This document shows, in pieces, positions 47,056 through 64,000 of a DNA stretch of 64,000 bases. The stretch comes from Candidatus Aldehydirespiratoraceae bacterium (GTDB lineage: Bacteria > Actinomycetota > Acidimicrobiia > Acidimicrobiales > Aldehydirespiratoraceae): the NCBI GenBank assembly GCA_965205465.1, contig OZ242187.1, positions 2,902,244 to 2,966,243 on the forward strand, given 5' to 3'. Made by a program: the position numbers and the translations under genes. Under the pieces are notes generated by a model, which did not search any database, was not told the DNA's origin, and worked only from the letters and a program-made list of their open reading frames with translations. How positions within the stretch are numbered: the first letter of the stretch is position 1; each line of letters begins with the position of its first letter.

Positions 47056-49080
47056 TCAGATAGGGTTCAGAATTTCCGCTACTCGAAACTTCAGTTTCTT
47101 GCCAGGCGAGGATGTAGGTATTGGCTTGATGCGCAGTTCTCGCTCGGGATTTAGGGTTTCAAGCCTGACGTGGTACGTTATCAGCAATGTATTGAGGATC
47201 ATCTGCAAGTCCGCATAGTGCCGTCCGAGACATGCATGTGTTCCTAATCCGAAACGCACATACGCCCCCCGCGCTTGATGCTCTGAACGGTCAGGCAGGT
47301 AACGATCAATATCGAAGTCAAGCGGACTCTTATACAAGTCTTCATCGTAGTGAGGTGCCCCTTGACAGGTCATCAGGAGTGTTTTGGCTGGAATCTCAAA
47401 ACCTGCGATGGTGCAATCGTTCATCACTGTCCTGAGCTGAATCGGAAAGGTCGGATACAAGCGTGCCGCTTCCATACAGACGCGCTGCGTAACCTCAAAA
47501 CGATCGGCAGTAAAATTCTCGGCGCATAGTTCAGCACCATCTCCAAATACTGTCTCAGCTTCTTTGTACACTTTCTCACGCAGGTCGGGGCGTTGATTCA
47601 GGCAGTACATCACAAAACCGAGTCCAGAACCAAGGTAAATGGCCGCTGCCATTGAGAAGACGAACCAGAAAGTAATGTCAGTTTCCGGCAAGAACTGCGG
47701 ATCTTTCTGGTGCAATGCCAGAACAGCGTCGGCGATGTCGCCGGGTTGCCCGCGGCGCTGAGCCGGTGTGTGTGACTCTAGAACGGACTGTCGTAGTTCT
47801 TCCACGCGCTTGCGATAACGCTTCATTCTCGGTGTCCGTAACATGAAGTGCGGTAACATCCCTTGCACTTCTGTAGCCAATGCACGATGCTCAAAGTCAA
47901 TCAGTTCTCGGGCGTAGTGGCTGCAATCAACATTGATGAGCAGTCGTGAGGATTGACTGGCAATCATGTCCTCGAGTGTCTGCGTGGCGCGAAACACGCT
48001 CCCCTCGGTCCACTCCTTCAAGGATTGTCGGCACAGGTGGACAGCCTCGGGCAGTCGCTCTCGGAACGCAGGACCGGAGTACGCGGCCTGCATTGCGCGC
48101 CGCATCTTGAAGTGATCAGCGCCGTCCATGCCAGGAATGCTGTTGCCAGCACCGACCGCTCGTTCGAGACCCTGAACGTAGTCTTTTGAGCGAAGGTAGT
48201 AGCGCCCATAGGTGTTCACCCATTGATTTACTTCGGTCCCTATGGCGACGACAACGGGTGACTTGTGGATTTTGAACGGCATAGTCAGAATGGGGCCATG
48301 TTGTCGAGAAATTTCGAGCATTCCCTTCGGGATATTGCCTGACCGCAGGTCTCGCTGCCGCAGGAGATCAATATAGCGCAGCTTGTCCATTTGCTGGCGC
48401 GGTCGTGTGCGACGAAGTTTCGGTCGTCCGACGGAATCCACGATCGCCTGGGCTACAGTGCGACCGATGAGATCAAGATTGGCTAAGAACTCAATTCGCT
48501 CGTGCCATTCTTCGTAATCTTCCGCCGACAGCAATGTCTCGAAGCCCTTGATCGAGTGAAGCAATGACACAAGAATGGCATCGCGCGGGGATGGAATAGT
48601 GTCGTTCATAATGACACCAATGATTCGGGACTTGCACTCCTGAACCATCGCACGAGATTTGCCTGGATAGTGGCCCGAACGGGCCACATCACGCGAGAGC
48701 ATCCAGAATCCGCCGTTGAGATATTCAAGTATGCCCCGCTCGACCAGACGATTGAGCATGTTCGACACGACCAGCTCTGAATGTACTGCATTTCGCTCAA
48801 TCCAATATTGTGCATCTTTATCTTCTGAAGACTCAGCGATCTCTGATAGAATTGAGTCAATGGTTTCATCACCTACGGGATCGTCGTTGATAATATACAA
48901 CGTTGCCGGATCTGTATCTATTCGTCCGTCCAGTGCTAGATCTGCAATGACAGCACCAATAGTAACGCAAGAAAGCGGCCAGCCCGGCGCCTTTTCCAAA
49001 TAGCCCGTCTGCTCGTTGAGCATCAACATTATCAGTTCTTCGGTGAGAAAGAGCTTCTCAAACTGCTGGGGCGAATTCAT
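47056..49080 (-). CDS. GPP34 (GOLPH3/VPS74-like) domain fused to cytochrome P450
   Basis: The N-terminus LFLTEELIMLMLNEQTGYLEKAPGWPLSCVTIGAVIADLALDGRIDTD is a GPP34 signature. The C-terminal half has EAAR (ExxR) and the haem loop FGLGTHACLGRHYA. The gene is visibly A+T-richer than its flanks. Confidence 0.8.
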   Translation of the reverse strand: MNSPQQFEKLFLTEELIMLMLNEQTGYLEKAPGWPLSCVTIGAVIADLALDGRIDTDPATLYIINDDPVGDETIDSILSEIAESSEDKDAQYWIERNAVHSELVVSNMLNRLVERGILEYLNGGFWMLSRDVARSGHYPGKSRAMVQECKSRIIGVIMNDTIPSPRDAILVSLLHSIKGFETLLSAEDYEEWHERIEFLANLDLIGRTVAQAIVDSVGRPKLRRTRPRQQMDKLRYIDLLRQRDLRSGNIPKGMLEISRQHGPILTMPFKIHKSPVVVAIGTEVNQWVNTYGRYYLRSKDYVQGLERAVGAGNSIPGMDGADHFKMRRAMQAAYSGPAFRERLPEAVHLCRQSLKEWTEGSVFRATQTLEDMIASQSSRLLINVDCSHYARELIDFEHRALATEVQGMLPHFMLRTPRMKRYRKRVEELRQSVLESHTPAQRRGQPGDIADAVLALHQKDPQFLPETDITFWFVFSMAAAIYLGSGLGFVMYCLNQRPDLREKVYKEAETVFGDGAELCAENFTADRFEVTQRVCMEAARLYPTFPIQLRTVMNDCTIAGFEIPAKTLLMTCQGAPHYDEDLYKSPLDFDIDRYLPDRSEHQARGAYVRFGLGTHACLGRHYADLQMILNTLLITYHVRLETLNPERELRIKPIPTSSPGKKLKFRVAEILNPI

Positions 49081-50396: not shown

Positions 50397-53300
50397 CTAG
50401 GTGGGGGGCTGCCAGCGGTGGGCGATTATCTTGTCTCGTTCGGCGGGGTCGGTGATGGAGACAGTGGAGGTGGGGGTGCGGTGCCAGAAGATTTCCTGGT
50501 CACCTTTGCGTTCCTGGATGGGATGGCCGGATGGTTCGATACTGATGCGGGCCAGTTGGTTGCCGTCTACGGTGTGAAACTCCCAGTCGATGAGGTCAAG
50601 AACGGCGTCACCAAGACGGGAGCGGATGAGGTTCTCCAAGTGTTGGCCCCATAGGTCCTGGTCACCCCGCTCGCCGCGTTTGGTGAACGTGGCGTAGTCG
50701 TCTTCCAGACCGTGGACGGAGCCGTCGTCGGCCACACCGATGAGCAGGGTGCCACCGAATTTCGAGTTGGTGAAACCGGCGATGGTCTTGATGGCGGCGT
50801 CCTCGGTCACGCCGCCTTTGCGCTGTGCTTTGATGTCCCAGCGCAGCGTGGATTTGTATTCCAGGTGGAGCGTCTCGCGGTCGGGTCCGATCAGGTCGCC
50901 GATGGGGCAGGTTCGTTGGCGAGCAACGGTCGCGCGCTTCTGCACATCGGGGGCGAACACGGCGATGAGATCGGCTTGCAATTCGCTGTTGTCCAGATAG
51001 CTGAACACCAGTTTGTCGTTGCGGTCGAGGCGTGACAGCAGTGCGTCTTGGAACCGCGCGGGGAACACATGGTCGCGGAACGTGGCTTCGTCGTTGTTGG
51101 TTGCCTGATTCTGGATCTCTATATCGGAGATCAGATCTGCTGCGGCGGCTTGGAACACGAGTCGGTCATCTTCGGTCCAGTCCGTGCCGAAGCGTTCGTT
51201 GATGCGGGCGATGATCTTCGAAAGGTGTTCGGCTTCGGGATCGGCGAGTGGACCTGTGCCGGAGTAGATGGTGATTACCTCGGCTTCTCCGCCCGGAAGT
51301 TCGATCGAGCCCTCGAAGGTCAGGTCGTGTCGCAGGTGTGTCAGTTCCACTTCGGAACCCAGGTTGATGCGGTCGGTGCCTGTGCGGTCACGGATCAGTG
51401 CGGCCAAGGCTCGACAGAAGCGGTAGTCGCGCTCAAGCTCCGCGTTTCGGAACTGCACCACGAGCGACAGGAAGCTGTAGACACGCACAAACCGGCCCAA
51501 AGCGTCGCGAAATGCGTCTTGGTCTTCTTCGGTCAGCGCATTGAAACGGTCAACCGCGGGTTGCATGGCTGCGTCGATCTGGGCGTGGGTGCCTTCGCTC
51601 ACCAACAGGGTGGAGGCCCGTTCCATCTCGCCTTGGTCGAGCACGTCGAAGCGGTCGAGTTCGTGACGGGTGTCGAACAGCAGGTTGGGATCGGTGGGCG
51701 GGGCGACGGTCTTGCCGTAGTAAACGGCGAATGCTTCTTGAATCTCGTCGGCTTCGTTCACGAAATCAACGACGAACGTGCGAGTCTTTGCGGGGTGGAT
51801 CCGGTTGAGCCTTGAGAGGGTCTGAACTGCGGCCAATCCGGTGAGGGTCTTGTCGACGTACATGGCGGCGAGCTTGGGCTGGTCGAAACCGGTCTGGAAC
51901 TTCTCGGCGACCACCATGATCTGCCATTCGTCGGTGTCGAAGCGTTGAGCGGTCTGCGATTCTCCGAAGCCGTTGGCTTTGGTCTCGGTGAGTCCGTCAA
52001 CCTCGCCTGAGAACGCTACGAGCACTCCGAGGTCGTAGCCGAGGTTGTTGGCATGGTTCCGCAGCGCTTCCCACATCCGTACGGCGTGGGGCCGTGACGA
52101 GCACACCACCATCGCTTTGGCTCTGCCTCCGACCTGGCGGGCGATCTTGGTGCGGAAGTGCTCGACGATGATCTCGGCTTTCTGCGCCAGATTGTCGGGG
52201 TGAAGGGTCACGAATCTGGCGAGCGCGCTGCGGGCTTTGCTTGTTTCGTATGCCGGATCGTCGAGGATCGATTTTTCGAGGTGGAAGTATTGGTTGTAGG
52301 TGAGATAACCGGCCAGCACATCCATGATGAAGGCTTCTTCGATGGCTTGGCGCATCGGGTATTGGTGGAACGGCTTGTGTTTGCCGTCTTTGACCTCGCC
52401 GAACATCTCAAGGGTGCGGCCTTTGGGTGTGGCGGTGAACGCGAAGAAGGACAGGTTGGGCTGAGGACCCCGCGCTGTCACGGCTTCTGCGAGCAGTGTT
52501 TCGGCGTCGGTCGGTTCGTCTTCGCTGTTCGCCTCAACCTCCGGCTCGGCAGAACCCAGGGCACGACGCAGCTCAGCGGCGGCCTGACCGGTCTGCGAGG
52601 AGTGGGCTTCGTCGACGATGACCGCATAGTTGTGTTCAGGTACCTGCTCGATCTTGTCGAGGATGTAGGGGAACTTCTGCAGGGTCGTGACGATGATCCG
52701 GGCCTGCTCACCGATCAGGGCTTCGGCCAACTGCGCCGATGACTCGTCGATGCGCTGCACGACCCCGGTGGCGTGCTCGAACTTGTTGATGGTGTCTTGA
52801 AGTTGCCGGTCGAGCACGATCCGGTCGGTGATGACCACCACCTTGTCGAACACATTGGTATCGGTCTGGTTGTGCAGCGATGAAAGCCGGTGGGCCAACC
52901 AGGCGATCGAATTGGACTTGCCCGACCCTGCTGAGTGTTGAACCAGGTAGTTGCGGCCCGCTCCGTTTTCTTTGGCGTCCGCTTCGAGTTGGCACACGGC
53001 ATCCCATTGATGGAACCGCGGGAAGATCACTTCTGGTCTGGCCCGTGAGCCTTTTGATGGTTTCACCACATGTATGAACCGACCGAGGATGTCCATCCAG
53101 GCGTCGCGGCTCCAAACCTGTTGCCACAGATACGAGGTTCGGTGGCCGTCGGGGTTTGGCGGGTTGCCCGCGCCGAGTTGGTGCCCCCGGTTGAATGGCA
53201 GGAACCGGGTACGGGTGCCGGCGAGGTGGGTGGTCATCGCCACAGAGGATGGATCGACTGCGAAGTGCACCATGCCGGTCCGGTTCAGGGTCCGGTTGCG

Positions 53301-53855
53301 GGGCGACCGGTCGTGTCGGTATTGGGCGATGGCGTTCTCAACGGTCTGGCCTGTGTAGGGGTTCTTGAGTTCGGCGGTGGCCACCGGTATGCCGTTGACG
53401 AACAGGGCAAGGTCGACTGTCTGGTTGCTGGAGGGATCGAACGGTAGCTGCCGGGTCACCGTCAACACGTTTGCGTCGTAGCGTTCGGCCAGCTCTGGCG
53501 TCAGCCCGTGCGCCGGTTTGAAGTAGGCGAGCTTGATTGTGACGTTGCGGTCCACGACACCGTTCCGCAGCACGTCCACGGTGCCGCGCTTGTTGAGTTC
53601 GAAGGCGAGTCGCCGCACGAACCCGGACTGCGCTCTGTTGGGATCGCCTCCGTATGCGGAGTCCACCAGCCGCGCCCATTGCTCGCCCTGGGTCGCGCCG
53701 ATGAACACGAACAGATCGGCCGTGTCCACGCCCGCCTCAGCGTCGAAGTCCCTCGGATGGTCCCCAACGTTTCCGATCTTCACCTGCCGGTAGCCGCCGT
53801 GTTCAACCAGCCAGGAGGCGATGTCTTCTTCAAACGCCGCTTCAGTTACAGACAT
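50397..53855 (-). CDS. hsdR: Type I restriction enzyme R subunit with C-terminal AlbA_2/Schlafen-like domain
   Basis: SF2 motifs QHSAGSGKSNS, TDRIVLDRQL, VIVDEAHSSQ and FAFTATP. The N-terminus begins EAAFEEDIASWL. GGAGG lies 8 nt before ATG 53855. The extra C-terminal 155 aa begin LEYKSTLRWD...AGFTNSKFGGTLLIGVADDGSVHGLEDDY. Confidence 0.9.
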   Translation of the reverse strand: MSVTEAAFEEDIASWLVEHGGYRQVKIGNVGDHPRDFDAEAGVDTADLFVFIGATQGEQWARLVDSAYGGDPNRAQSGFVRRLAFELNKRGTVDVLRNGVVDRNVTIKLAYFKPAHGLTPELAERYDANVLTVTRQLPFDPSSNQTVDLALFVNGIPVATAELKNPYTGQTVENAIAQYRHDRSPRNRTLNRTGMVHFAVDPSSVAMTTHLAGTRTRFLPFNRGHQLGAGNPPNPDGHRTSYLWQQVWSRDAWMDILGRFIHVVKPSKGSRARPEVIFPRFHQWDAVCQLEADAKENGAGRNYLVQHSAGSGKSNSIAWLAHRLSSLHNQTDTNVFDKVVVITDRIVLDRQLQDTINKFEHATGVVQRIDESSAQLAEALIGEQARIIVTTLQKFPYILDKIEQVPEHNYAVIVDEAHSSQTGQAAAELRRALGSAEPEVEANSEDEPTDAETLLAEAVTARGPQPNLSFFAFTATPKGRTLEMFGEVKDGKHKPFHQYPMRQAIEEAFIMDVLAGYLTYNQYFHLEKSILDDPAYETSKARSALARFVTLHPDNLAQKAEIIVEHFRTKIARQVGGRAKAMVVCSSRPHAVRMWEALRNHANNLGYDLGVLVAFSGEVDGLTETKANGFGESQTAQRFDTDEWQIMVVAEKFQTGFDQPKLAAMYVDKTLTGLAAVQTLSRLNRIHPAKTRTFVVDFVNEADEIQEAFAVYYGKTVAPPTDPNLLFDTRHELDRFDVLDQGEMERASTLLVSEGTHAQIDAAMQPAVDRFNALTEEDQDAFRDALGRFVRVYSFLSLVVQFRNAELERDYRFCRALAALIRDRTGTDRINLGSEVELTHLRHDLTFEGSIELPGGEAEVITIYSGTGPLADPEAEHLSKIIARINERFGTDWTEDDRLVFQAAAADLISDIEIQNQATNNDEATFRDHVFPARFQDALLSRLDRNDKLVFSYLDNSELQADLIAVFAPDVQKRATVARQRTCPIGDLIGPDRETLHLEYKSTLRWDIKAQRKGGVTEDAAIKTIAGFTNSKFGGTLLIGVADDGSVHGLEDDYATFTKRGERGDQDLWGQHLENLIRSRLGDAVLDLIDWEFHTVDGNQLARISIEPSGHPIQERKGDQEIFWHRTPTSTVSITDPAERDKIIAHRWQPPT

Positions 53856-53978
53856 CACAGTCACCTCCCCCTCGGCCCGAACGCCCCACACACCCTAGAA
53901 GCAAGCGAACTGAACCGTGAAGCCGACCCCCGTTGGAACATCGAGCATCAGCGGCGTCCGTGACCATAGAGTCCTGGC

Positions 53979-54464: not shown

Positions 54465-54596
54465 GTGACTGCTCGGCGGCTTTGGTATTGAGCTTTTCGG
54501 CCGTGGTGGCGGGGGAACATTACGTGGAGCGGATCCGCGTTTCGAAAGCATTGTGTTGTCACTTTCTTTGAACAGTTGGGATTGGCAGCCAGCGTG
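54465..54596. repeat. Direct repeat copy A (partner at 56215..56333)
   Basis: The core of about 85 nt (GTGACTGCTCGGCGGCTTTGGTATTGAGC...CGCGTTTCGA) matches copy B with 10 substitutions. Similarity decays with indels after that. Confidence 0.85.
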
Positions 54597-55007: not shown

Positions 55008-56036
55008 CTAGTCCTGGGAGCGTTGGATTATCTGACGTCTCGCCTCCCCGCGGTGGATCGCGTGTGCGATGTGGTCAGAGGTAACGCACTTGTCGAGGCG
55101 GCGCACCATTACTCGGATGGCATCGAGGGCCACCGCCTCCACTTCAGCCGCGCTGAATTCTTCCATTTTCTGTGCGGCTCCAGTCAGATCGAAGTCGCAC
55201 CGCACCGATCTCAGCTTCAACGCCAGAATCTCGGATCGGGCGGTCTGGTCGGGAGACTCGAACTCGACTATCTCGTCGAATCTTCGCCAGACTGCGGAGT
55301 CCAGCAGCGTGGGGTGATTCGAGGTGGCTATGAAGAGCGAGTCGCTTCGGTGATCATCCACGACCTGCAGCATCGCGGCGACTACCCGACGCAACTCGCC
55401 ATGATCGGCCCGATCGCCTCGTTCCCGCCCGAGCATGTCGAACTCATCGAAAATCAAGACCCAGGATCCCACATCGAGAAAACTGAAGATCTGTTCAAGG
55501 TGCCGTGCTGTTTCACCCAAGTATGACGAGACGATTGTGGCCAACCGAACACGAGCGATGGGTAGCCCGAGTTGCGCCGCGGTGGCCTCGGCGCTGGCTG
55601 ACTTACCGCTTCCTGGGGGGCCTACCAAGAGTACGCTCGACCGTGGTGAGACTCCGTGTGCCCGCATTGCTGATCGTTGACGGAACTCTTCGACCAGCGA
55701 CTCGAACACGCTGACCACCGAGTCGGGCAGAACCAAGTCATGGAACGACACGCGTGGTTCCTCCAGCGAGATCAGTGGGAGGTCGTCGCGAGTCTTGGGC
55801 AGGGGTCGTAGCGAAGAAACCTGGGGAGGTCTCCGCCGGTGGCCGGGTTCTTCGAGGATCGCTTCAAGCTGCTCGGCGACGAGATCGTGCCGTTTGCGCC
55901 TCTCGTCATCGATCAATTCTTTCGCAGCGCGCTGAAACCCAGCATCGTCGCCCCGCTGATGACTGCGGAGCAGCGCTTTCACCAAGTCACTGCGTGCCAC
56001 GCCATGAACATACTCGCGCACTGTGCCACCGACCAC
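55008..56036 (-). CDS. Classical AAA+ ATPase with helical N-terminal region (orphan)
   Basis: Walker A LLVGPPGSGKSASAE, Walker B VLIFDEFDML, sensor-1 IATSN, arginine finger region SAVWRRFDE. GTG start. Confidence 0.85.
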   Translation of the reverse strand: MVGGTVREYVHGVARSDLVKALLRSHQRGDDAGFQRAAKELIDDERRKRHDLVAEQLEAILEEPGHRRRPPQVSSLRPLPKTRDDLPLISLEEPRVSFHDLVLPDSVVSVFESLVEEFRQRSAMRAHGVSPRSSVLLVGPPGSGKSASAEATAAQLGLPIARVRLATIVSSYLGETARHLEQIFSFLDVGSWVLIFDEFDMLGRERGDRADHGELRRVVAAMLQVVDDHRSDSLFIATSNHPTLLDSAVWRRFDEIVEFESPDQTARSEILALKLRSVRCDFDLTGAAQKMEEFSAAEVEAVALDAIRVMVRRLDKCVTSDHIAHAIHRGEARRQIIQRSQD

Positions 56037-56214: not shown

Positions 56215-56333
56215 GTGACTGCTTGGAGGCTTTGGTATTGAGGTTTTTGGGCGTGGTGGCGGGGGGACATTCCGCGGAGCGGCTCCGCGTTTCGAGCGCT
56301 TTGTCCCGCGAGTTTGCCGGTCAGCCATGCGTG
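56215..56333. repeat. Direct repeat copy B (partner at 54465..54596)
   Basis: Same orientation as copy A, 1750 bp away. Contains the palindrome CGCGGAGC-G-GCTCCGCG (56273-89). Confidence 0.85.
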
Positions 56334-57635: not shown

Positions 57636-57902
57636 TCATCGATTGCGGTAGACGTCGCGGCGATGGGCGACCCTCACGACTTGTACGACTAGGCGCCTGT
57701 CGATCACCTCATAGATGATCCGGTAGTCTCCGACGCGCACCCGGTAAACGGAGTCCTCCCCGACCAGAGCGACGCATCGAGGTGGCCGCGGCTCGGTGGC
57801 CAAGAGGTCTATCGCAGTTCGAACCCTGATCTGATCGTTACGCGGCAGCCGAGCGATCGACCGGACCGCGCGCCTGGCGATCTCAACTTGGTACCGCTTC
57901 AC
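57636..57902 (-). CDS. RelE/ParE-family type II toxin
   Basis: 88 aa. The pattern ..LPRNDQIRVRTAIDLLATEP..YRVRVGDYRIIYEVIDRRLVVQVVRVAHRRDVY is typical. Confidence 0.8.
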   Translation of the reverse strand: MKRYQVEIARRAVRSIARLPRNDQIRVRTAIDLLATEPRPPRCVALVGEDSVYRVRVGDYRIIYEVIDRRLVVQVVRVAHRRDVYRNR

Positions 57903-58150
57903 TAAAGGCCCAGCGCGGCCTTGACATCATCCCAAGGAACGTAGTCATCGTCGATCCGCGCGGCGGCGAGTTCACGGCGGTCTTCGACATCGTCAGCGTG
58001 GTCGACGAGCCGGTCGAATGAATCGATGTCGAGGATCACCGCTACCCGTCGGCCGCGCCGAGTCACCATGACCGGCTCGGCTGACCTGCGTGCCTCCTCG
58101 AGCACTTCGGCCAGTCGGCTCCGTGCTTCGCTCACCGCTACCTCGTTCAT
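57902..58150 (-). CDS. Phd/YefM-family antitoxin
   Basis: Start at the internal ATG gives MNEVAVSEARSRLAEVLEEARRSAEPVMVTRRGRRVAVILDIDSF... Its TAG stop overlaps the toxin GTG by 1 nt. Confidence 0.75.
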   Translation of the reverse strand: MNEVAVSEARSRLAEVLEEARRSAEPVMVTRRGRRVAVILDIDSFDRLVDHADDVEDRRELAAARIDDDYVPWDDVKAALGL

Positions 58151-58368
58151 GTACGAATCGTACATATCAACCGCCGACGGATCAACTCTGGGTTCCATCG
58201 GCGAACTGTCTGGTGTCATCGAACCGGTCCAGCACACGACGCGTGCCACGCCGCCGTTTCCATGTCATTCGGTGGTGCCACCAGCCTCGGCTACGCCCTG
58301 GATGCTACTGGCCATCGAGGGGCCGTGAGCGGCGACATCGTGCCCGCTTAGTAGCCGGTTCGTGACTG

Positions 58369-59241
58369 CTAGAGCCCGTCCGGTGCGGCGGAGCGCGTGT
58401 TTGGCTCGTGCTCGCTGGTGATGGCTGCTACTGCCTCTGCGATGGACTGATGGTAGGTCGACGGCCCCCACAGCGGCTCAGACGAATCGCGTGACGGTCG
58501 CACTCTGAGCGCGTCGAGGTCTCGGCCGTGTGCGTCCCAGATGCGTAGTGTCTCCCATCCGATCATGATCGGGATCGGTGGTGCTGGGGCGAATAGCTCG
58601 CCGTCATGTGTGTGCCGCTCGTCGCCCCACCACGGGTTGCCGTACGACTCGACACGTTCCGCTACGGCTTCGTGCCACGGCTGGTCGGAGACGCGCTCGG
58701 CAAGTTTGGATCGCATCCAGTTACTGATCCTCGACCACGGTCCGTAATGAGCACTGCACATGAGTCCTCCCCAGGTCATCGGCGGGGCGTGCTGACCGCA
58801 GAATGTGCACGGCATCGGCGGCGATCCGCCCGGCGGCGGTTCGTGCTGTGCTATGAGACGGTCTGGCGAGCCCCTGTTCACCGAGACGCAGAGACCGTCG
58901 AAAGTGTCTGCCATCGTCCAACGCACTAGAGCGCTCTCGGAGCGGCGAGCGTCGGCCAGCGTGTCGCATCGCTTGACGGCGCGGATGGTCTTGGTGGCGT
59001 TCTGCCAAGCAGGCTGCGCCACCATCCCCGACACAGCCGCTCCGTCGTGTCCGCTTAGTCGTTTGGCGAGCATCTGTTCGTCGGTCTCGTCGTCGCCACC
59101 GCTTGTCTGCCCGACGTACACCATCACCTTCCGTGCGTCGGTCGCATCGGAGTAATTGACTGTCTGGCCCTCGTAGAGAGCCGACCCTTGCACGGGCTCT
59201 GTGGTCTCTGCGGTGATCTCGTAGATGAGCCAGCGGGTCAC
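58369..59241 (-). CDS. GIY-YIG-like nuclease domain protein with Cys/His-rich C-terminal half
   Basis: N-terminal elements in GIY-YIG order: WLIYEI...VYVGQTSG...LAKRLSGH...ARRSESALVRW...SVNRGS. CTFCGQH..CSAH then follows. GTG start overlaps the stop of the upstream remnant ORF. Confidence 0.5.
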   Translation of the reverse strand: MTRWLIYEITAETTEPVQGSALYEGQTVNYSDATDARKVMVYVGQTSGGDDETDEQMLAKRLSGHDGAAVSGMVAQPAWQNATKTIRAVKRCDTLADARRSESALVRWTMADTFDGLCVSVNRGSPDRLIAQHEPPPGGSPPMPCTFCGQHAPPMTWGGLMCSAHYGPWSRISNWMRSKLAERVSDQPWHEAVAERVESYGNPWWGDERHTHDGELFAPAPPIPIMIGWETLRIWDAHGRDLDALRVRPSRDSSEPLWGPSTYHQSIAEAVAAITSEHEPNTRSAAPDGL

Positions 59242-59378
59242 GAGATTAGTCCGTTGCGGCGGAGCACTCGTCGCGCCGCTGATGACTGCGGAGAAGCGCC
59301 CTTCACCAAGTCACTGCGTGCCACGTCATGAACATACTCGCACGGTGTGTCACCCACCACGCGGAGGGTGAACCACAT
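59238..59378 (-). pseudogene. Duplicated, frameshifted 5' end of the AAA+ ATPase gene (acts as a 46-codon upstream ORF)
   Basis: Positions 59268..59382 match 55945..56058 at roughly 88% by eye. The peptide ..VVGDTPCEYVHDVARSDLVKG.. compares with the AAA+ N-terminus MVGGTVREYVHGVARSDLVKA... A 1-nt indel then changes the frame. Confidence 0.6.
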
Positions 59379-59474
59379 GGTCGCAGCAGACCCAGCGGCG
59401 CGCCGCCGGCCTCTAGTCCTGCACCCTCGACCCGAGTAGGTCGTTGGACAAGGGCCTCAGGGTACGATCGCGGA

Positions 59475-60311
59475 ATGGCCAAAGATACGATCCCGCTGTT
59501 CACTGCCGATGTTCTGCGCGGCATCACCGATGTGTTGGGAGCGACCGACGACGGACTTACGGGGTCGGAGATCGCGCACAATTTGGCCCAGGCTCGCGTC
59601 CTCGACGTCAATCGAGGAATGACGAAGCGTCACAGACTGTTCAACGCCCTAGCCGAGCGGCAAAACAAGGATCGGGTCGGCAACTGCGTAGTGGCGTTCA
59701 TGACCGAATCCATGTCACCGGTGCACTACCGCAACGATCCCGCTGGTTTCTCTCGGCGGCAGGCCGACCTCAACGAGGTGTTGGTATTCGCTGGGTATCG
59801 CATCAACGACGAAGGCAAAGTAGAACGGCCCCGTAGCGGTAAGGCGTCGACCCTTGACGAGGCGGCGGAGCGCGCGAACACAATCCGCGTCGAACTGCGT
59901 CGTCGAGACACGCATCCAGACCTGTTGCGCTACTGCACCGTCGAACTATTGATGAAGAACAACTTCCACGCTCTATTGGAAGCGTCAAAGAGCATGCCTG
60001 ATCGAATCCGGTTGATGACGGGCGAGACCAGCGATGGAGCGGAGCTGATCCAGGCCACGGTTACGTCTTCGAGCGGACCGCTGGTGGCTATCAACGCTGG
60101 AGCAACAGAGACTGATCGGAAAGAGCAGTCAGGGTTCGCCAATCTGATCATCGGCCTCATCGGTCTTTACCGCAACCCGACGGCTCACGATCCCAAACTC
60201 CATCGGACCGTAACCGACGAAGAACTTCTTGAGGCTCTGACGACGATGTCGATGGTGCACCGCCGACTTGACGACGCATCCTTGGACACGACAGTGAATG
60301 CGGACCGTTAG
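59475..60311 (+). CDS. TIGR02391 (Hypoth_Ymh) family protein with N-terminal extension
   Basis: The C-terminal half reads HPDLLRYCTVELLMKNNFHALLEASKSMPDRIR..TSDGAELIQ...EQSGFANLIIGLIGLYRNPTAHDPK...EALTTMSMVHRRLDDA. Start taken at ATG 59475. Confidence 0.75.
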   Translation: MAKDTIPLFTADVLRGITDVLGATDDGLTGSEIAHNLAQARVLDVNRGMTKRHRLFNALAERQNKDRVGNCVVAFMTESMSPVHYRNDPAGFSRRQADLNEVLVFAGYRINDEGKVERPRSGKASTLDEAAERANTIRVELRRRDTHPDLLRYCTVELLMKNNFHALLEASKSMPDRIRLMTGETSDGAELIQATVTSSSGPLVAINAGATETDRKEQSGFANLIIGLIGLYRNPTAHDPKLHRTVTDEELLEALTTMSMVHRRLDDASLDTTVNADR

Positions 60312-60383: not shown

Positions 60384-61859
60384 GTGAATCAAGCGGATCT
60401 CCGACTCGTCGTTGACAATCTCGGGCCGATCCGGCATGCCGATGTCGCGCTTCGACCTCTCACCGTGTTGATCGGACGAAACAACACAGGCAAGACCTAC
60501 TTGGCCCAGGCGCTTTATGCCGCGCACAAAGCGATTGACCCTTTTCCGCGGCGCAGACCGGAGACTCTAGCTGTCAGCGAGTTTGAAGCCTTAAGGGCGG
60601 TACTTGTACCTCTCATGGCATCAGAACACACCGAGCCATCTCTCCGGGTCAATGATCTGCCTCCGGAATTGCAGAAAAAGATGACAGAAGCCGTTCGTAG
60701 CGCGCTCAAAGACACCGGCGCGAGGCTTGAGCAACGGCTATCCGCCTATTTCGGAGTATCCGATCTCGTCGATATCACGAGGTGGGGTGCGAACAACATC
60801 ATCGTGAGATTATTGAATGACAAAGACGATGCACTTTTGTTTGATAGCAAAGGCAACGCATCGGTAGACCCGTCCGCGGTGCTGTCGATGTTTATTGATG
60901 ATGAGGAGGCTCTTGGATTTCCACCCTTAGCGAGGTTGCTCACCCATAATGGCGACGACCAAGACAACGAGATCTTTCGACAGGAACTATCTTGGATCCT
61001 TGTTTCAAAGGTTTGGCAAGGATACATAAGGCAAGCACATCTTGGCGGGTTGGCCCACTATCTTCCTGCTGGCCGGTCGGGTTTGCTGCACGCTTGGACT
61101 GATGTCGTGAAGTTACGTCTGCAGCTAGAGAGAGATCGCTACGGTCTGGTCAGACCGGATTCGGATCTGGGTGGTGTTGCGCTTGATTTCATTTCGTCAT
61201 TGGCAGATGTGCTCGGAAGAGGTCCTCGGTACGGTTACGGGAGGCAACTCTCGCTGTTTCATGATGAAGGATCACGCAAGAATCCTGAATCACTTGCCCT
61301 CTTGCAGGAACTAATGGACGGCAAGATCTTGGCTGGATCGGAAACTGATATGGTTCCCACTCTCGAATATGAGCAAGACGGCCATCAGTTGCCAATCCGC
61401 CGAGCTTCGTCGATGGTTGCCGACTTAGCACCGCTGGCTATGTGGATTGATAGGCTCATCCGTCCCGGGGATTTGCTCGTTATCGATGAACCTGAATCGC
61501 ACCTGCACCCCGAAGCCATCCGTCTGGTTGCTCGTGTTCTGGTGCGACTTGTCAATGAGAACGTGCGGGTCGTGTGCGCCACTCACAGTTCTGTTTTGTT
61601 GCACGAACTCACGAACTGCATCCTGAGGAGCCAGCTGAGCAAATCAGAGCGAGATTCGCAAGATGAGTTCACCCAAGGGGATATCCTGGCTCTTGAAGAC
61701 ATCGCAGTTCACCGTTTCCGTCGCTCCAGTCCTGCTGATCCCGTGGAGGTGGAACAGGTCAATATTGAGCCTGATTGGGGTATACCCGAGGACGAATATG
61801 TGGAGGTGGCTGGTGACTTGTCAGACGAGACTGCACGCCTCATTGATTTGCTCGCGTGA
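60384..61859 (+). CDS. ABC-type (SMC/RecF-like, AAA_15/21-class) ATPase
   Basis: Walker A VLIGRNNTGKTY, a roughly 200-aa helical insert, signature-like LPAGRSGLLH, Walker B LLVIDEPESHLHP, H-loop VVCATHS. GAAGGGA SD sequence before the GTG start. Confidence 0.85.
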   Translation: MNQADLRLVVDNLGPIRHADVALRPLTVLIGRNNTGKTYLAQALYAAHKAIDPFPRRRPETLAVSEFEALRAVLVPLMASEHTEPSLRVNDLPPELQKKMTEAVRSALKDTGARLEQRLSAYFGVSDLVDITRWGANNIIVRLLNDKDDALLFDSKGNASVDPSAVLSMFIDDEEALGFPPLARLLTHNGDDQDNEIFRQELSWILVSKVWQGYIRQAHLGGLAHYLPAGRSGLLHAWTDVVKLRLQLERDRYGLVRPDSDLGGVALDFISSLADVLGRGPRYGYGRQLSLFHDEGSRKNPESLALLQELMDGKILAGSETDMVPTLEYEQDGHQLPIRRASSMVADLAPLAMWIDRLIRPGDLLVIDEPESHLHPEAIRLVARVLVRLVNENVRVVCATHSSVLLHELTNCILRSQLSKSERDSQDEFTQGDILALEDIAVHRFRRSSPADPVEVEQVNIEPDWGIPEDEYVEVAGDLSDETARLIDLLA

Positions 61860-62365
61860 TCAATACTAAGACAATCAGCAACCAGCATGCACGGTGTGGT
61901 TGCATCATGATCCGCGTGACAGGACCTTCATCGTCTCCAACCGCCGTGGAGCACTCGGACTGTAGCCTACAAGTAAACGGATTACTTCTAGCCATAGACT
62001 GCAATGTGTGTAAAGCTTTTCACGAAAGACGGAAACGGCCCGATCTCTTGGTCCTTCGAGAAGTGAATCACAAGGCACAGTGGCTCGTGATCGAGATTAA
62101 GTCGACTGCGAGAATGAAAGCGATCCAGCAATTGAACGCCGGTTTGAATTCCCTTGCGAATAGCTCTCTATTTTTGGAATTTGCGCACGACCGACCGCGC
62201 GCTGTTCTAGCTACCAAACGACAGCGGACCGCTGATTTAGGATGGCTGCGCAAACCATTGGACACGGCATGGGGCGCTGTCTTCGTGCAACCGGTTAAGT
62301 GGCGCTTCGCGTTTCAGGTCGGAGTGAGGGTGTCGAGCAGCGTCCAGTTGGGTTTGCCTGCGTAG
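61856..62365 (+). CDS. Small PD-(D/E)xK-motif protein, 3' end replaced by an ISL3 insertion
   Basis: GTGA overlap with the ATPase stop. Core reads RPDLLVLREVNHKAQWLVIEIKSTARMKAIQQL (PD...ExK...Q). From 62301 the ORF reads into the IS. The native end (..VQPVKCGDAEAI*) resumes at 63723-63745. Confidence 0.65.
   Translation: MINTKTISNQHARCGCIMIRVTGPSSSPTAVEHSDCSLQVNGLLLAIDCNVCKAFHERRKRPDLLVLREVNHKAQWLVIEIKSTARMKAIQQLNAGLNSLANSSLFLEFAHDRPRAVLATKRQRTADLGWLRKPLDTAWGAVFVQPVKWRFAFQVGVRVSSSVQLGLPA
62293..62300. repeat. ISL3 target-site duplication, left copy (GGTTAAGT)
   Basis: An identical 8-mer occurs at 63715-63722, immediately outside the inverted repeats. Confidence 0.85.
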
Positions 62366-63714
62366 AGCAGGACTCGGATGCGGTAGTTGTTGAAGTTGGT
62401 GAACCCGAACGCGGCGCGTTTGACGCGTTTGGCGAGGTTGTTGGCGGCCTCGGTGGCTGCGTTGGTTACTCGCGCCGCGTGCCAGTTCGAGATCTGTGTG
62501 CGCCAGCGCCACAGGGTGCGTCCGAGGCGGTTGATCTCTGGTGCCAGGCTGAGGTCTTGGAAATCGACTGCGAGTTGTTTGACGGTATCGGCGCCGAGTT
62601 CGGGATCGTCGATGTCATAGATGCGTCGCAGGGTCTCTTTGGCGTGCCAGGCCAGACGGACCTCGCCTTTGGGGTCGCCTGCATCTAGCAGTCCCCGCAG
62701 CCGGATCCGGCCGTTGTCGGTGATGCGCTCAGAGGCCGACACCAACAGCTTGCGTGCCCGGTACAGCGGGTCGTGTTTGAGGCCGCGATGCCCGAGCGTC
62801 TGGTTCTGGACCCGGCGGCGGACCTCGTCAAGGGCGTCGTTGCCCAACCGCACGACGTGGAACGGGTCCGCGACCTGCTTCGCGGCGGGCAACGCGGCAT
62901 CGAACGCGGCCCGATACGGCCCTGAGAGGTCAAGCACCGCCCAACCGATGGCGCAACGCCATGCGCGGGGCCGCTCAAGCAGCCACTTCGTGGGCGCTTT
63001 GGCCGTCCGGCCTCGGACTACGTCCAACAACTGGCCCCGCCCAACATCGACGATGCTAGTCGCCCAGGCCTTGGTCCGGAACCGTCCCCGCCGCCACATC
63101 AGGTGTTCGTCGAGGCCCAGCGCCCGCGTGTCGCCGATCCTGGCGGTGTCGGCGGCCAGCAGCGCCTCGCCCCAGCGGCTCACCGACATGTTCACCGGAT
63201 GCCAACTGCATCCCAGCTCCGAAGCGACCTCTTTGAGCGGGCGGCCACGGCCCGCCTGGCGCGTCGCCCAGCGGCCCGCCCGTGTCGTCAGCCGCTCCCG
63301 AGGCGGCGCGATAGCGGAGTCCTGTTCGGTGACGGTGCCAGACAGGCATCCTCGCTGCCCGCAACGCCACCGGCGCTTGTGCCACACCAGCCGCGCCGCC
63401 CGCCCGAACGCCGGGAGGTCCACCAACTCCACCGGCCGCTCCCCGTCAGACCACAACCGCCCGCCACAGCCCACACAATCCGGTCTCGGTGCCCGCCGGC
63501 GGACATGAACCCGCAGCGGCCCGCCCGCTTCGTCCTCAACGCCGAGCACCTCAACGTCGCCCAGTCCCACCAACAGCTCACAAACACGCGTAGGGTCAAC
63601 TTCCACAGGGATCCTCCAGATTCTCGGTTGCCTATCAGCACCGATTCTGGGGGATCCCTCGCGTTCAACCGCGGACCCTCACCCCGCTGACTCCGACCTC
63701 AAACGCGGAGAGCC
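62301..63714 (-). mobile_element. Intact ISL3-family insertion sequence (1414 bp)
   Basis: Inverted repeats are GGCGCTTCGCGTTTCAGGTCGGAGT and GGCTCTCCGCGTTTGAGGTCGGAGT (reverse complement of the right end). Flanked by an 8-bp duplication. Carries one full-length transposase ORF. Confidence 0.9.
62314..63606 (-). CDS. ISL3-family transposase
   Basis: 430 aa. N-terminal zf-ISL3 (RPDCVGCGGRLWSDGERPVELVDLP..ARLVWHKRRWRC). DDE region ..LGLDEH...VLDLSGPYRAAF...ADPFHVV... Confidence 0.9.
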   Translation of the reverse strand: MEVDPTRVCELLVGLGDVEVLGVEDEAGGPLRVHVRRRAPRPDCVGCGGRLWSDGERPVELVDLPAFGRAARLVWHKRRWRCGQRGCLSGTVTEQDSAIAPPRERLTTRAGRWATRQAGRGRPLKEVASELGCSWHPVNMSVSRWGEALLAADTARIGDTRALGLDEHLMWRRGRFRTKAWATSIVDVGRGQLLDVVRGRTAKAPTKWLLERPRAWRCAIGWAVLDLSGPYRAAFDAALPAAKQVADPFHVVRLGNDALDEVRRRVQNQTLGHRGLKHDPLYRARKLLVSASERITDNGRIRLRGLLDAGDPKGEVRLAWHAKETLRRIYDIDDPELGADTVKQLAVDFQDLSLAPEINRLGRTLWRWRTQISNWHAARVTNAATEAANNLAKRVKRAAFGFTNFNNYRIRVLLYAGKPNWTLLDTLTPT

Positions 63715-63722
63715 GGTTAAGT
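63715..63722. repeat. ISL3 target-site duplication, right copy (GGTTAAGT)
   Basis: See 62293-62300. Confidence 0.85.
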
Positions 63723-63849
63723 GCGGTGATGCGGAGGCGATTTGACCGGACTCCAACGGTGGCCCGCATTGTCGTGTGTTGCCTCGCTGGGCTAGGTTCT
63801 CAAGGTCGGTTGTCCGTGGCTACAAGAGTTGAGTATTCATGTGGCAAAC

Positions 63850-64000
63850 CTACGCTAACGAGACTCCTCCGGTCACGGCTGCGGTGATCAGCGACGCCCG
63901 GTACTCTTCTAGGAGCTTGATCGCATTTTCCGTGCGTGAGGACAGCGCGTCGATACGGGTTGTTTCGGTATCGAGATAATCAGCGATCGCCCGTTGCTCG
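63850..64000 (-). CDS. hsdS: Type I R-M specificity subunit HsdS, C-terminal end (5' part beyond the window)
   Basis: Not in the ORF track. The reverse frame reads EQRAIADYLDTETTRIDALSSRTENAIKLLEEYRASLITAAVTGGVSLA*. This is the conserved HsdS C-terminal coiled-coil/central conserved motif. Stop at 63852-63850. Confidence 0.75.
   Translation of the reverse strand, partial: EQRAIADYLDTETTRIDALSSRTENAIKLLEEYRASLITAAVTGGVSLA

Follow-up and report, generated by a model that had tools for sequence, protein, structure and literature searches.

A gene pair for an ABC-type ATPase and a putative PD-(D/E)xK nuclease, probably a divergent branch of the PD-T4-4/WonAB anti-phage class

Do the two overlapping genes near the end of this 64,000-nucleotide stretch of DNA (the window hereafter) form a defence system of a new kind, or do they belong to a class that already has a name? 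The pair consists of a gene for an ABC-type ATPase (60384-61859, plus strand, 491 aa) and, directly behind it, a small ORF that is now read as 169 aa (61856-62365, plus strand). We argue that the two probably represent a branch of the PD-T4-4/WonAB class of anti-phage systems that is divergent and mainly of Acidimicrobiia type.

The ORF list agrees with the GTGA overlap that had been proposed to couple both ORFs, the GTG start of the second gene overlapping the ATPase stop. A Shine-Dalgarno-like AAGGGAG is present 6 nt 5’ of the ATPase GTG at 60384, while a promoter and terminator scan gave a signal no better than that of shuffled sequence. As also noticed earlier, the pair is richer in A+T than its flanks, with a G+C fraction of 0.51-0.54 versus 0.58-0.65 in the flanks and 0.67-0.72 in the adjacent insertion sequence (IS). 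The identical 4-nt overlap is found at the relative loci L001-L004, L006-L009, L012, L013, L018 and others, and this recurrence in other genomes indicates that the pair is more than a chance arrangement.

The small ORF does not end natively, as an insertion sequence has displaced its last codons:

61856-62300, plus strand: effector gene up to the insertion point (native codons 1-148 and the first base of codon 149), with a GTG start overlapping the ATPase stop
62293-62300, unstranded: left copy of the 8-bp target-site duplication GGTTAAGT flanking the ISL3 element
62301-63714, minus strand: ISL3-family insertion sequence of 1414 bp (Pfam DDE_Tnp_ISL3 8.5e-51, NCBIfam transpos_ISL3 5.4e-81)
63715-63722, unstranded: right copy of the duplication GGTTAAGT flanking the ISL3 element
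63723-63745, plus strand: displaced effector 3’ end, i.e. the rest of codon 149 (Cys), GDAEAI and a stop; this tail agrees with CGDLEAI of the homologue P0002

The transposase of the element is encoded on the minus strand (62314-63606), the inverted repeats at its two ends are imperfect, and the insertion point is effector codon 149. The IS ends and the 8-bp duplication show that the IS-free join put forward in the original prediction, 62300 to 63723, was exactly right. The restored ORF, expected at about 155 aa, indeed comprises 155 aa and ends in ...VKCGDAEAI*, while the undisrupted homologue P0002, of 155 aa and 76% identical to the effector, ends in ...VKCGDLEAI; the IS-free pair measures 1940 bp. 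Only the last seven effector codons are replaced through the insertion, but these include the conserved C149, and for this reason the copy in the window is probably inactive. It is probably best seen as a recently inactivated remnant, the intact form of which is found at L001.

The ATPase and its motifs are located as follows:

60384-61859, plus strand: ATPase gene, PD-T4-4_A / PDC-M47A-like (ORF; Pfam AAA_21 2.2e-19, AAA_15 8.7e-19)
60474-60497, plus strand: Walker A GRNNTGKT, aa 31-38, with G31, N33, N34, T35, G36, K37 and T38 invariant in 33 homologues
61473-61511, plus strand: Walker B / D-loop LLVIDEPESHLHP, aa 364-376, of the OLD-family-type DEPExHLHP form
61578-61589, plus strand: H-loop ATHS, aa 399-402, with T400, H401 and S402 invariant in 33 homologues

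All three motifs had been pointed out before, and their key residues are invariant across the 33 homologues: K37 is the Walker A lysine, D368 and E369 form Walker B within an invariant set that further includes P370, E371, H373, H375 and P376, and H401 is the H-loop histidine. Together with an Arg-containing motif at the Q-loop position (R231, within an invariant PAGRSGL), these make up the OLD-type motif set. The C-terminal extension adds an invariant WGI-E motif at aa 465-469 (W465, G466, I467 and E469 in the same 33 homologues). Altogether 422 homologues of the ATPase were found. Its AF2 model (pLDDT 79, pTM 0.82) is matched best in Foldseek by PtuA, Rad50 and RecN at about 1e-9, with retron Eco8 also matched, which points to an ABC fold, and the match to the OLD family nuclease 6p74 in a PDB sequence search spans the Walker B / D-loop stretch. 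Against phage records, tblastn of the ATPase gave only partial matches, in three Vibrio phage records, and a scan of IMG/VR gave three full-length relatives, two of which have a PD-T4-4_B-like partner, while the effector subfamily of the window is absent beside all three.

The effector has two conserved parts:

61886-62011, plus strand: N-terminal His/Cys-rich segment (H11, C14, C16, C36, C49, D50, C52), from family conservation
62036-62134, plus strand: PD-(D/E)xK core RPD63...E80-I-K82...Q92, from conservation and predicted secondary structure (strands 64-70 and 73-82, helix 88-102)

The core motif recognised in the original prediction is real, although its spacing has to be corrected to RPDLLVL-x9-LVIEIKS-x7-QQL, with nine instead of 13 residues in the first gap. 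P62, D63 and E80 are invariant, while K82 (43 of 45 members) and Q92 are nearly so, in a subfamily for which an exhaustive HMMER search gave at least 65 cluster representatives. An AF2 model of the effector shows a confident alpha/beta fold (pLDDT 93.4) in which D63 opens strand 64-70, E80 and K82 close strand 73-82, and helix 88-102, with Q92 on it, precedes strand 115-120; as modelled, D63...E80xK82 has the catalytic layout, on consecutive beta strands, of an alpha-beta-beta-beta-alpha-beta PD-(D/E)xK core. The top Foldseek matches in the PDB are nearly all PD-(D/E)xK proteins, namely the restriction endonucleases EcoO109I, Bse634I, BamHI and Cfr10I, as well as XisH, Cap4, AddB and DdmD, but they are weak (best E 0.029, TM at most 0.39); the best match in BFVD reaches an E of 8e-4. 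A few family members show weak matches to Pfam VRR_NUC or UL24. The effector of the window itself matches no Pfam, NCBIfam, PD-T4-4_B or PDC-M47B model, nor anything in PADLOC at E <= 0.1, and its profile finds nothing among PDB sequences. Neither protein of the pair carries an HNH or TOPRIM domain according to Pfam, NCBIfam and PADLOC, as had been supposed for the effector. In sum, motifs, profiles and the conserved core agree with the initial view of an ABC-type ATPase (OLD/AAA_15/AAA_21-like) coupled to a small PD-(D/E)xK protein.

Judging by the family alignment, the distinctive feature of this effector subfamily is its conserved set of one His and six Cys. Cysteines ahead of the core had already drawn attention, and they are found at positions 14, 16, 36, 49 and 52; among 45 members, H11 is conserved in 43, C14 in 39, C16 in 42, C36 in 42, C49 in 42, C52 in 44 and C149, near the C-terminus, in 40. 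This set is absent from the PD-T4-4_B alignment. Such a pattern of conservation suggests that the His and the six Cys, C149 included, most likely constitute a structural or regulatory metal site for Zn or Fe-S.

So where does the pair belong? That it would be undescribed and without named relatives does not hold, as profile search assigns the ATPase to PD-T4-4_A (PADLOC PDLC04033, 6.9e-40; PDLC04032, 2.3e-27) and PDC-M47A (3.8e-31), the latter being part of PDC-M47, a PADLOC candidate for which a literature search by name found nothing. The PADLOC PD-T4-4_A match is local, falling into two stretches of which aa 298-470 is the best, and taken by itself this would suit a truly new two-gene system, in which the ATPase shares only the generic OLD/ABC scaffold and a Cys-rich PD-(D/E)xK effector was recruited separately, possibly with a trigger and target of its own. 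However, BLASTP aligns the ATPase end to end, C-terminal extension included, with the PD-T4-4_A-type protein of L005 (22% identity, E 4e-26).

For the effector, the same two readings compete. That it is missed by all PADLOC, Pfam and NCBIfam models and by the PDB sequence search, and that its His/6-Cys set is not shared by PD-T4-4_B, would speak for a new system. The PD-T4-4_B profile matches none of 48 effector family members, with weak PDC-M47B core matches in seven, and a direct hhalign comparison of the curated effector alignment with the curated PD-T4-4_B alignment reaches only 14.5% probability over 38 columns. In contrast, the effector profile (group G1) aligns with a broad PD-T4-4_B-like profile (G4) at 86% (E 4.8e-6, 44 core columns), and passage through two intermediate groups raises this to 96-99% (G1-G2 99.1%, G2-G4 96.5%, G3-G4 96.2%), the catalytic core always being in register, although some profile drift is possible in this link, since the intermediates were picked for their adjoining homologous ATPases. 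A jackhmmer search from the effector at Z=1e6 likewise arrives at PD-T4-4_B-like ORFs, their motifs being aligned in register. Since the comparison of the curated alignments and the structural matches are weak and no model matches, the homology rests on the broader profiles and the intermediates, and at this level of sequence comparison it is supported that the effector is a remote homologue of PD-T4-4_B. Missed by the PD-T4-4_B models, and tied to them through profile-profile comparison and intermediates only, it is better taken as a divergent subfamily than as the mark of a new kind of system.

The survey of relatives bears on this same point. Starting from the ATPase alignment, 80 genome loci were surveyed, and in nearly all of them a downstream ORF of 150-200 aa adjoins the ATPase gene, so that the co-occurrence that was to be checked is indeed found. 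Around 36 of these downstream ORFs match the effector family of the window and around 26 match PD-T4-4_B, while one (L040) matches both effector HMMs. Effector type follows ATPase similarity, i.e. clade, and shifts in small steps across the ATPase family, where intermediates are present. This, like the equal gene order, size and overlap of PD-T4-4, speaks against a separately recruited effector, and we consider a truly new system unlikely. The effector had also been called unusually small, which does not fit the family size, PD-T4-4_B measuring about 198 aa. The hosts of the pair are Acidimicrobiia and other MAG lineages, and not Enterobacteria.

The surroundings of the pair invite two further explanations:

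50397-53891, minus strand: HsdR, type I restriction subunit with a C-terminal Schlafen/AlbA_2 domain, one edge of an embedded island of about 10 kb
63853-64000, minus strand: hsdS 3’ end, the other edge of the island; its translation closely matches the C-terminus of the L001 HsdS

Flanked by hsdR and the hsdS 3’ end, the pair does lie inside a type I restriction-modification (R-M) locus, as was originally stated, on a defence island that further carries an IetA-like gene, a ParE/Phd pair and a PD-lambda-3B-like HEPN gene. Its hsd location might be functional in the manner of PrrC: the Hsd complex would keep the pair silent, and a phage anti-restriction protein that disables Hsd would trigger it. 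In the window and its closest relatives with enough context (L001, L002, L003, L004 and L006), the pair is indeed next to or between hsd genes, and ABC-ATPase defences embedded in R-M loci have been discussed along with the precedent of PrrC (bioRxiv 10.1101/2024.01.29.577857). Beyond these, HsdS/HsdM relatives are found within the 6-kb flanks of just one (L067) of about 75 other loci, which makes the hsd association a property of one syntenic lineage and not of the family. That embedding in type I R-M loci characterises the whole family was rejected on the same grounds, its occurrence being confined to the closest relatives and L067. Moreover, WonAB and PD-T4-4 are described as protecting on their own in E. 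coli (PMC12137116 and PMC9519451), and it is quite unlikely that the pair functions as such a guard.

A more elaborate version combines the location with the His/6-Cys set: the effector would then be an Fe-S or Zn dependent nuclease gated unlike PD-T4-4_B and WonB, and in the Acidimicrobiia lineage the hsdR-hsdS-embedded pair would be a PrrC-like backup that fires upon neutralisation of R-M. We regard this as improbable, yet if true, it would turn the subfamily into a mechanistically distinct branch, beyond a sequence variant.

The second explanation involves the gene directly upstream. A Ymh/HEPN gene at 59328-60311 matches PADLOC PD-Lambda-3_B at 8.8e-71 and ends 72 bp 5’ of the ATPase gene on the same strand, and PD-lambda-3 is listed as ‘Nuclease, HEPN’. 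With the same arrangement in L001 and L002, one could envisage a three-gene unit in which the HEPN RNase is a second effector, or in which the small nuclease is its PD-lambda-3A-like partner. However, the ATPase gene is preceded by a ribosome-binding site of its own, and Ymh relatives are absent beside the pair in L003, L004, L006 and all other loci. As an obligate third component the Ymh/HEPN gene was rejected, since no locus other than the window, L001 and L002 has it beside the pair, and a three-gene unit appears highly unlikely to us.

If the pair is a branch of the PD-T4-4/WonAB class, its mode of action can be sketched after the model of WonAB, Septu/retron PtuAB and PARIS. The ATPase would dimerise head to head around ATP, with its variable helical inserts (approximately aa 50-220 and 250-300) possibly acting as the sensor of a phage cue, and the nuclease may be held by the conserved C-terminal extension (aa ~415-491, with the WGIPEDEY motif). 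Upon sensing, ATP binding or hydrolysis would free or activate the nuclease, which could then cut nucleic acid and thereby abort the infection.

The pair opens no new category of immunity. What it does is widen the PD-T4-4/WonAB class to Acidimicrobiia, Dehalococcoidia and further lineages that have received little study, many of which are sponge-associated. Current defence-finder profiles detect the ATPase half alone, and with a profile built on the 65 effector clusters, annotation tools could recognise such systems, while the His/Cys set offers a concrete handle on the folding or regulation of the nuclease.

How, then, does the pair compare with known systems? PrrC, in the EcoprrI hsd locus, is likewise an abortive module based on an ABC-type ATPase inside a type I R-M locus, but there the anticodon-nuclease domain belongs to the same single polypeptide, and the effector shows no homology to PrrC. 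Septu (PtuAB) and the retron Ec78/Eco7 PtuAB share the plan of an ABC ATPase scaffold that holds a nuclease, PtuA being the best structural match of the ATPase model and also among its PDB sequence matches, whereas PtuB is an HNH nuclease and the sequence similarity to PtuA does not extend beyond the Walker B / H-loop region. With Gabija (GajA), PARIS (AriAB) and P2 OLD, the ATPase shares the OLD-type DEPExHLHP motifs (PADLOC AriA, Old and GajA at 1e-15 to 1e-23), yet these systems use a TOPRIM nuclease, fused or separate, and the pair has no TOPRIM. Membership in Septu, Gabija or PARIS was rejected because the effector is of the wrong type, PD-(D/E)xK instead of HNH or TOPRIM.

Closer is WonAB of the V. 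cholerae WASA-1 prophage, a validated system of an OLD-type ABC ATPase and a small variant PD-(D/E)xK nuclease, in which both genes and the catalytic residues are required and infection is aborted (PMC12137116). The ‘OLD-ABC ATPase + novel REase’ operon of Krishnan et al. 2020 follows the same logic as recounted there, and PD-T4-4 is placed in the same larger family as WonAB (PMC12137116). The likeness to WonAB and to the novel REase operon (AWB73975.1/AWB73976.1, SHI83489.1/SHI83462.1) is drawn from the published description. By that description, the mutated WonA residues K34, R182, E300 and H333 are plausible counterparts of K37, R231, E369 and H401, with a nearly equal spacing from E to H (33 in WonA versus 32 here), and WonB K71 would match effector K82. 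WonA is shorter between its motifs than the present ATPase, WonAB is described as prophage-borne and mainly from Gram-negative bacteria, and the account of WonB, as far as it was available to us, mentions no Cys cluster (PMC12137116), in contrast to the His/6-Cys effector here.

Also among the closest is PD-T4-4 of E. coli ECOR58 (Vassallo et al. 2022), listed as ‘ATPase, nuclease’ in Table S1 and validated against T4 (PMC9519451), and classed among the PD-(D/E)xK nuclease-NTPase systems (bioRxiv 10.1101/2025.07.10.664194). The E. coli PD-T4-4 shows no DNA cleavage in vitro. L005, with whose ATPase the present one aligns end to end, is a verified PD-T4-4 operon on E. coli plasmid NZ_CP051743 (PD-T4-4_A 3e-123, PD-T4-4_B 1e-43). 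The pair differs from PD-T4-4 in its effector, which has 155 aa versus about 198 aa, is missed by the PD-T4-4_B HMMs, has its first catalytic Asp in ‘RPD’ where PD-T4-4_B has ‘KSCD’, and carries the His/6-Cys set that PD-T4-4_B lacks; the ATPases have unlike inserts and 22% overall identity. What the two have in common is the ATPase gene coming first with a small PD-(D/E)xK protein directly downstream (1973 bp in PD-T4-4 versus 1940 bp here), ATPases that are homologous over their full length, an effector core D...(D/E)xK...Q in register, and mobile or defence contexts for both.

We show that the module in the window is a conserved, translationally coupled pair of an ABC ATPase and a PD-(D/E)xK protein, here called the effector. 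Both ORFs are present as described in the original prediction, including the GTGA overlap. The pair lies, as had also been stated, inside a type I R-M locus, within an island of about 10 kb between hsdR and the 3' end of hsdS. Besides the pair, this island encodes a DUF488 protein, an IetA-like AAA+ ATPase, ParE and Phd, an uncharacterised 290-aa protein and a PD-lambda-3B-like Ymh/HEPN protein. With a G+C of 0.51-0.54, versus 0.58-0.65 for the flanks and 0.67-0.72 for the IS, the pair is indeed A+T-richer than its flanks.

Features of the window around the pair
47056-49080, minus strand: 674-aa ORF with an N-terminal GPP34 (Golgi phosphoprotein 3-like) and a cytochrome P450 domain, an unusual fusion
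50397-53891, minus strand: hsdR, 1164 aa, with a C-terminal Schlafen/AlbA_2 domain (9.3e-12)
54465-54554 and 56215-56304: 90-nt direct repeats, 87% identical, 1750 bp apart
55008-56036, minus strand: IetA-like AAA+ ATPase (PADLOC IetA 2.2e-78; NCBIfam IteA 4e-59, below its cut-off)
57636-58249, minus strand: ParE toxin and Phd-YefM antitoxin pair
58369-59241, minus strand: conserved 290-aa gene
59328-60311, plus strand: Hypoth_Ymh/HEPN gene (PADLOC PD-Lambda-3_B 8.8e-71), true start probably near 59475
60384-61859, plus strand: ATPase, 491 aa, GTG start
61856-62365, plus strand: effector ORF as now read, its GTG start overlapping the ATPase stop codon
62293-62300 and 63715-63722: 8-bp target duplication GGTTAAGT, bracketing the ISL3 element
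62301-63714: ISL3 element with imperfect terminal inverted repeats, interrupting the effector ORF
62314-63606, minus strand: ISL3 transposase (Pfam DDE_Tnp_ISL3 8.5e-51; NCBIfam transpos_ISL3 5.4e-81)
63853-64000, minus strand: 3' end of hsdS

The ATPase gene has an AAGGGAG ribosome-binding site immediately 5' of its GTG, and its product carries Walker A GRNNTGKT (aa 31-38), Walker B/D-loop LLVIDEPESHLHP (aa 364-376) and the H-loop ATHS (aa 399-402). Pfam assigns AAA_21 (2.2e-19) and AAA_15 (8.7e-19), while the top PADLOC models are PD-T4-4_A (6.9e-40; second model 2.3e-27) and PDC-M47A (3.8e-31), with AriA, HEC-02A, Old, GajA and PtuA far behind. The protein has hundreds of homologues, 38-80% identical; positions invariant across 33 of them include the Walker A residues G31, N33, N34, T35, G36, K37 and T38, a PAGRSGL motif (R231), DEPE-H-HP (D368, E369), T400-H401-S402 and, in the C-terminal extension, a WGI-E motif (aa 465-469). 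The folds closest to its AlphaFold model (pLDDT 79, pTM 0.82) are PtuA of Septu and retron Ec78/Eco7, followed by Rad50, RecN and retron Eco8 (E ~1e-9), and the nearest solved chains by sequence are the OLD-family nuclease 6p74 and PtuA. Taken together, profiles, motifs, fold and solved chains bear out the reading of an ABC-type ATPase, specifically an OLD/PtuA-like one.

The effector has no Pfam, NCBIfam or PADLOC match of its own, and a word-indexed search returned only itself and P0002, a homologue that is 76% identical. An exhaustive HMMER search yielded 65 cluster representatives at a threshold of E <= 1e-3, and 29 of them also pass E <= 1e-10. Nearly all of the 65 measure 110-175 aa, and a few family members weakly match Pfam VRR_NUC or Herpes_UL24, and PADLOC SduA. 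The residues of the predicted core motif stand, with a corrected spacing of RPDLLVL-x9-LVIEIKS-x7-QQL instead of x13. Among 45 aligned sequences P62, D63 and E80 are invariant, and H11, C16, C36, C49, D50, C52, F55, W76, K82, Q92 and G96 nearly so; C14 is kept in 39 and C149 in 40. In the confident AlphaFold model (pLDDT 93.4, pTM 0.90), D63 lies at the start of strand 64-70, E80 and K82 at the end of strand 73-82, and Q92 on helix 88-102, ahead of strand 115-120. The predicted topology is the classical PD-(D/E)xK arrangement. Foldseek matches in the PDB are mostly PD-(D/E)xK enzymes but weak (best E 0.029, TM <= 0.39), comprising EcoO109I, Bse634I, BamHI, Cfr10I, XisH, the Cap4/AddB/DdmD nuclease domains and Hjc, with no close solved relative among them; comparison against BFVD gave one match (8e-4). 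As such, motif, predicted topology and the nature of these weak top matches support the suggested nuclease fold. The window's effector subfamily also conserves one His and six Cys (H11, C14, C16, C36, C49, C52, C149), from which we infer a putative metal site, Zn or Fe-S.

The effector ORF of the window is not in its original state. Joining 62300 to 63723, as originally proposed, restores a 155-aa ORF ending in VKCGDAEAI*, and P0002 is exactly 155 aa with the C-terminus VKCGDLEAI. The ISL3 element entered at codon 149 and swaps out the final seven residues only; because C149 becomes W and the tail is exchanged, the window's copy has probably lost its activity in part or altogether. The intact transposase ORF (430 aa) and the perfect 8-bp target duplication suggest a recent insertion. 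The element's G+C of ~0.70 is far higher than the ~0.52 of the gene it hit.

Homologues of both genes recur together, which the original prediction had put forward as a check. Loci L001 and L002 have the arrangement of the window, with Ymh upstream and hsdS/hsdM downstream; L003 has DUF488 upstream and the pair between hsdR and hsdS; in L004 the pair is preceded by a CBASS operon and followed by hsdS/hsdM. All four share the same 4-nt overlap. The ATPase alignment, run against a single genome of each species, retrieved 80 loci, the closest in Acidimicrobiia MAGs (Poriferisocius, Poriferisodalis, Spongiisociaceae, Aldehydirespirator), the next in Dehalococcoidia, a Thermoproteota archaeon, Vicinamibacterales and others. 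ORFs were then called in these loci and searched with HMMs. An ORF of 150-200 aa adjoins or overlaps the 3' end of nearly every ATPase. HMM matches to the window's effector family were obtained for about 36 of these ORFs, most beside window-like ATPases (HMM >~190 bits), and matches to a PD-T4-4_B profile for about 26, beside remoter ATPases (~100-140 bits); only the ORF of L040 matches both, and some 15-20 match neither at first pass. These counts show that ATPase and small downstream gene co-occur essentially always, and that effector type co-varies with ATPase clade. In the archaeal MAG (L018, 1938-3925) the pair includes an effector rich in Cys (E 2e-46 with the effector HMM), and the subfamily thus spans the boundary between bacteria and archaea. 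Some genomes have two pairs side by side (L007, 3456-5419, minus strand; L052, 4274-6279, plus strand), both copies matching ATPase and effector HMMs.

The surroundings are less constant. Embedding in an hsd locus is common to the closest relatives and not to the wider family, and the Ymh gene stands beside the pair in the window, L001 and L002 only; therefore, we rejected both as parts of the conserved module. The Ymh gene, with no recognisable PD-Lambda-3_A nuclease adjoining it, is divergently paired with the 290-aa gene, as in L001 and L002. L001 has a Phd gene at the equivalent position, and L003 the same HsdR-Schlafen/AlbA_2 fusion (1151 aa). No IetS protease partner can be recognised near the IetA-like gene, which is flanked by the 90-nt repeats; this suggests a cassette-like insertion or remnant.

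How, then, does the pair relate to described systems? PD-T4-4 of E. coli ECOR58, catalogued as 'ATPase, nuclease' and validated against T4, has two ORFs spanning 1973 bp (PMC9519451, Table S1/S2); HHpred gave AAA_15 and AAA_21 for PD-T4-4A and only weak PD-(D/E)xK matches, around residues 77-119, for PD-T4-4B (PMC9519451). It was later treated as a PD-(D/E)xK nuclease-NTPase system forming higher-order complexes, inactive in vitro on a DNA panel (bioRxiv 10.1101/2025.07.10.664194). The ATPase of a genuine PD-T4-4 operon carried by E. coli plasmid NZ_CP051743 (PADLOC A 3e-123, B 1e-43) aligns with ours over its full length, C-terminal extension included (22% identity, E 4e-26). The B family motifs AFTLD, KSCDL, DLKS and Q-xx-NS follow the same order as AIDCD, RPDL, EIKS and QL in the window. 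Most of the His/Cys set is missing from PD-T4-4_B and from the intermediate effectors. Direct comparison of curated effector profiles is weak (hhalign probability 14.5%, E 0.0019), with 38 core columns in register. Broader profiles built from downstream ORFs gave stronger links: by hhalign, the window subfamily matches intermediates (99.1%, E 5e-19), a Dehalococcoidia group (90%, E 1.5e-6) and a broad PD-T4-4_B-like set (86%, E 4.8e-6), to which intermediates (96.5%, E 9.1e-10) and the Dehalococcoidia group (96.2%, E 2.2e-9) also connect. Furthermore, jackhmmer from the window effector (conservative Z 1e6) reaches PD-T4-4_B-like ORFs (L081 3e-10, L084 1e-6) with the D...ExK...Q columns in register. 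Bearing in mind that intermediates were chosen by genomic position and that iterative profiles may drift, we conclude that both effector types probably belong to one superfamily. Given these links and the PD-T4-4_A match, the claim of an undescribed system falls, while the proposed logic of ATPase plus nuclease is upheld. Current PADLOC models would detect the ATPase alone, not the whole system.

On the model of WonAB, PtuAB and PARIS, the ATPase may form an ATP-sandwich dimer whose variable helical inserts would sense a phage cue, with the nuclease held by the C-terminal extension; the nuclease, released or activated in an ATP-dependent way, could then cleave nucleic acid and bring about abortive infection. 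As described in PMC12137116, WonAB of V. cholerae combines an OLD-type ABC ATPase with a small variant PD-(D/E)xK nuclease, requires both genes and the catalytic residues of each, and acts via lysis-independent abortive infection, WonB being predicted to dock onto the C-terminal extensions of dimerised WonA. Its authors assign WonAB and PD-T4-4 to a single larger family together with the 'OLD-ABC ATPase + novel REase' operon (PMC12137116). Subject to the same possible profile drift, and for WonAB by its published description, we conclude that the pair in the window represents a divergent branch within the PD-T4-4/WonAB class.
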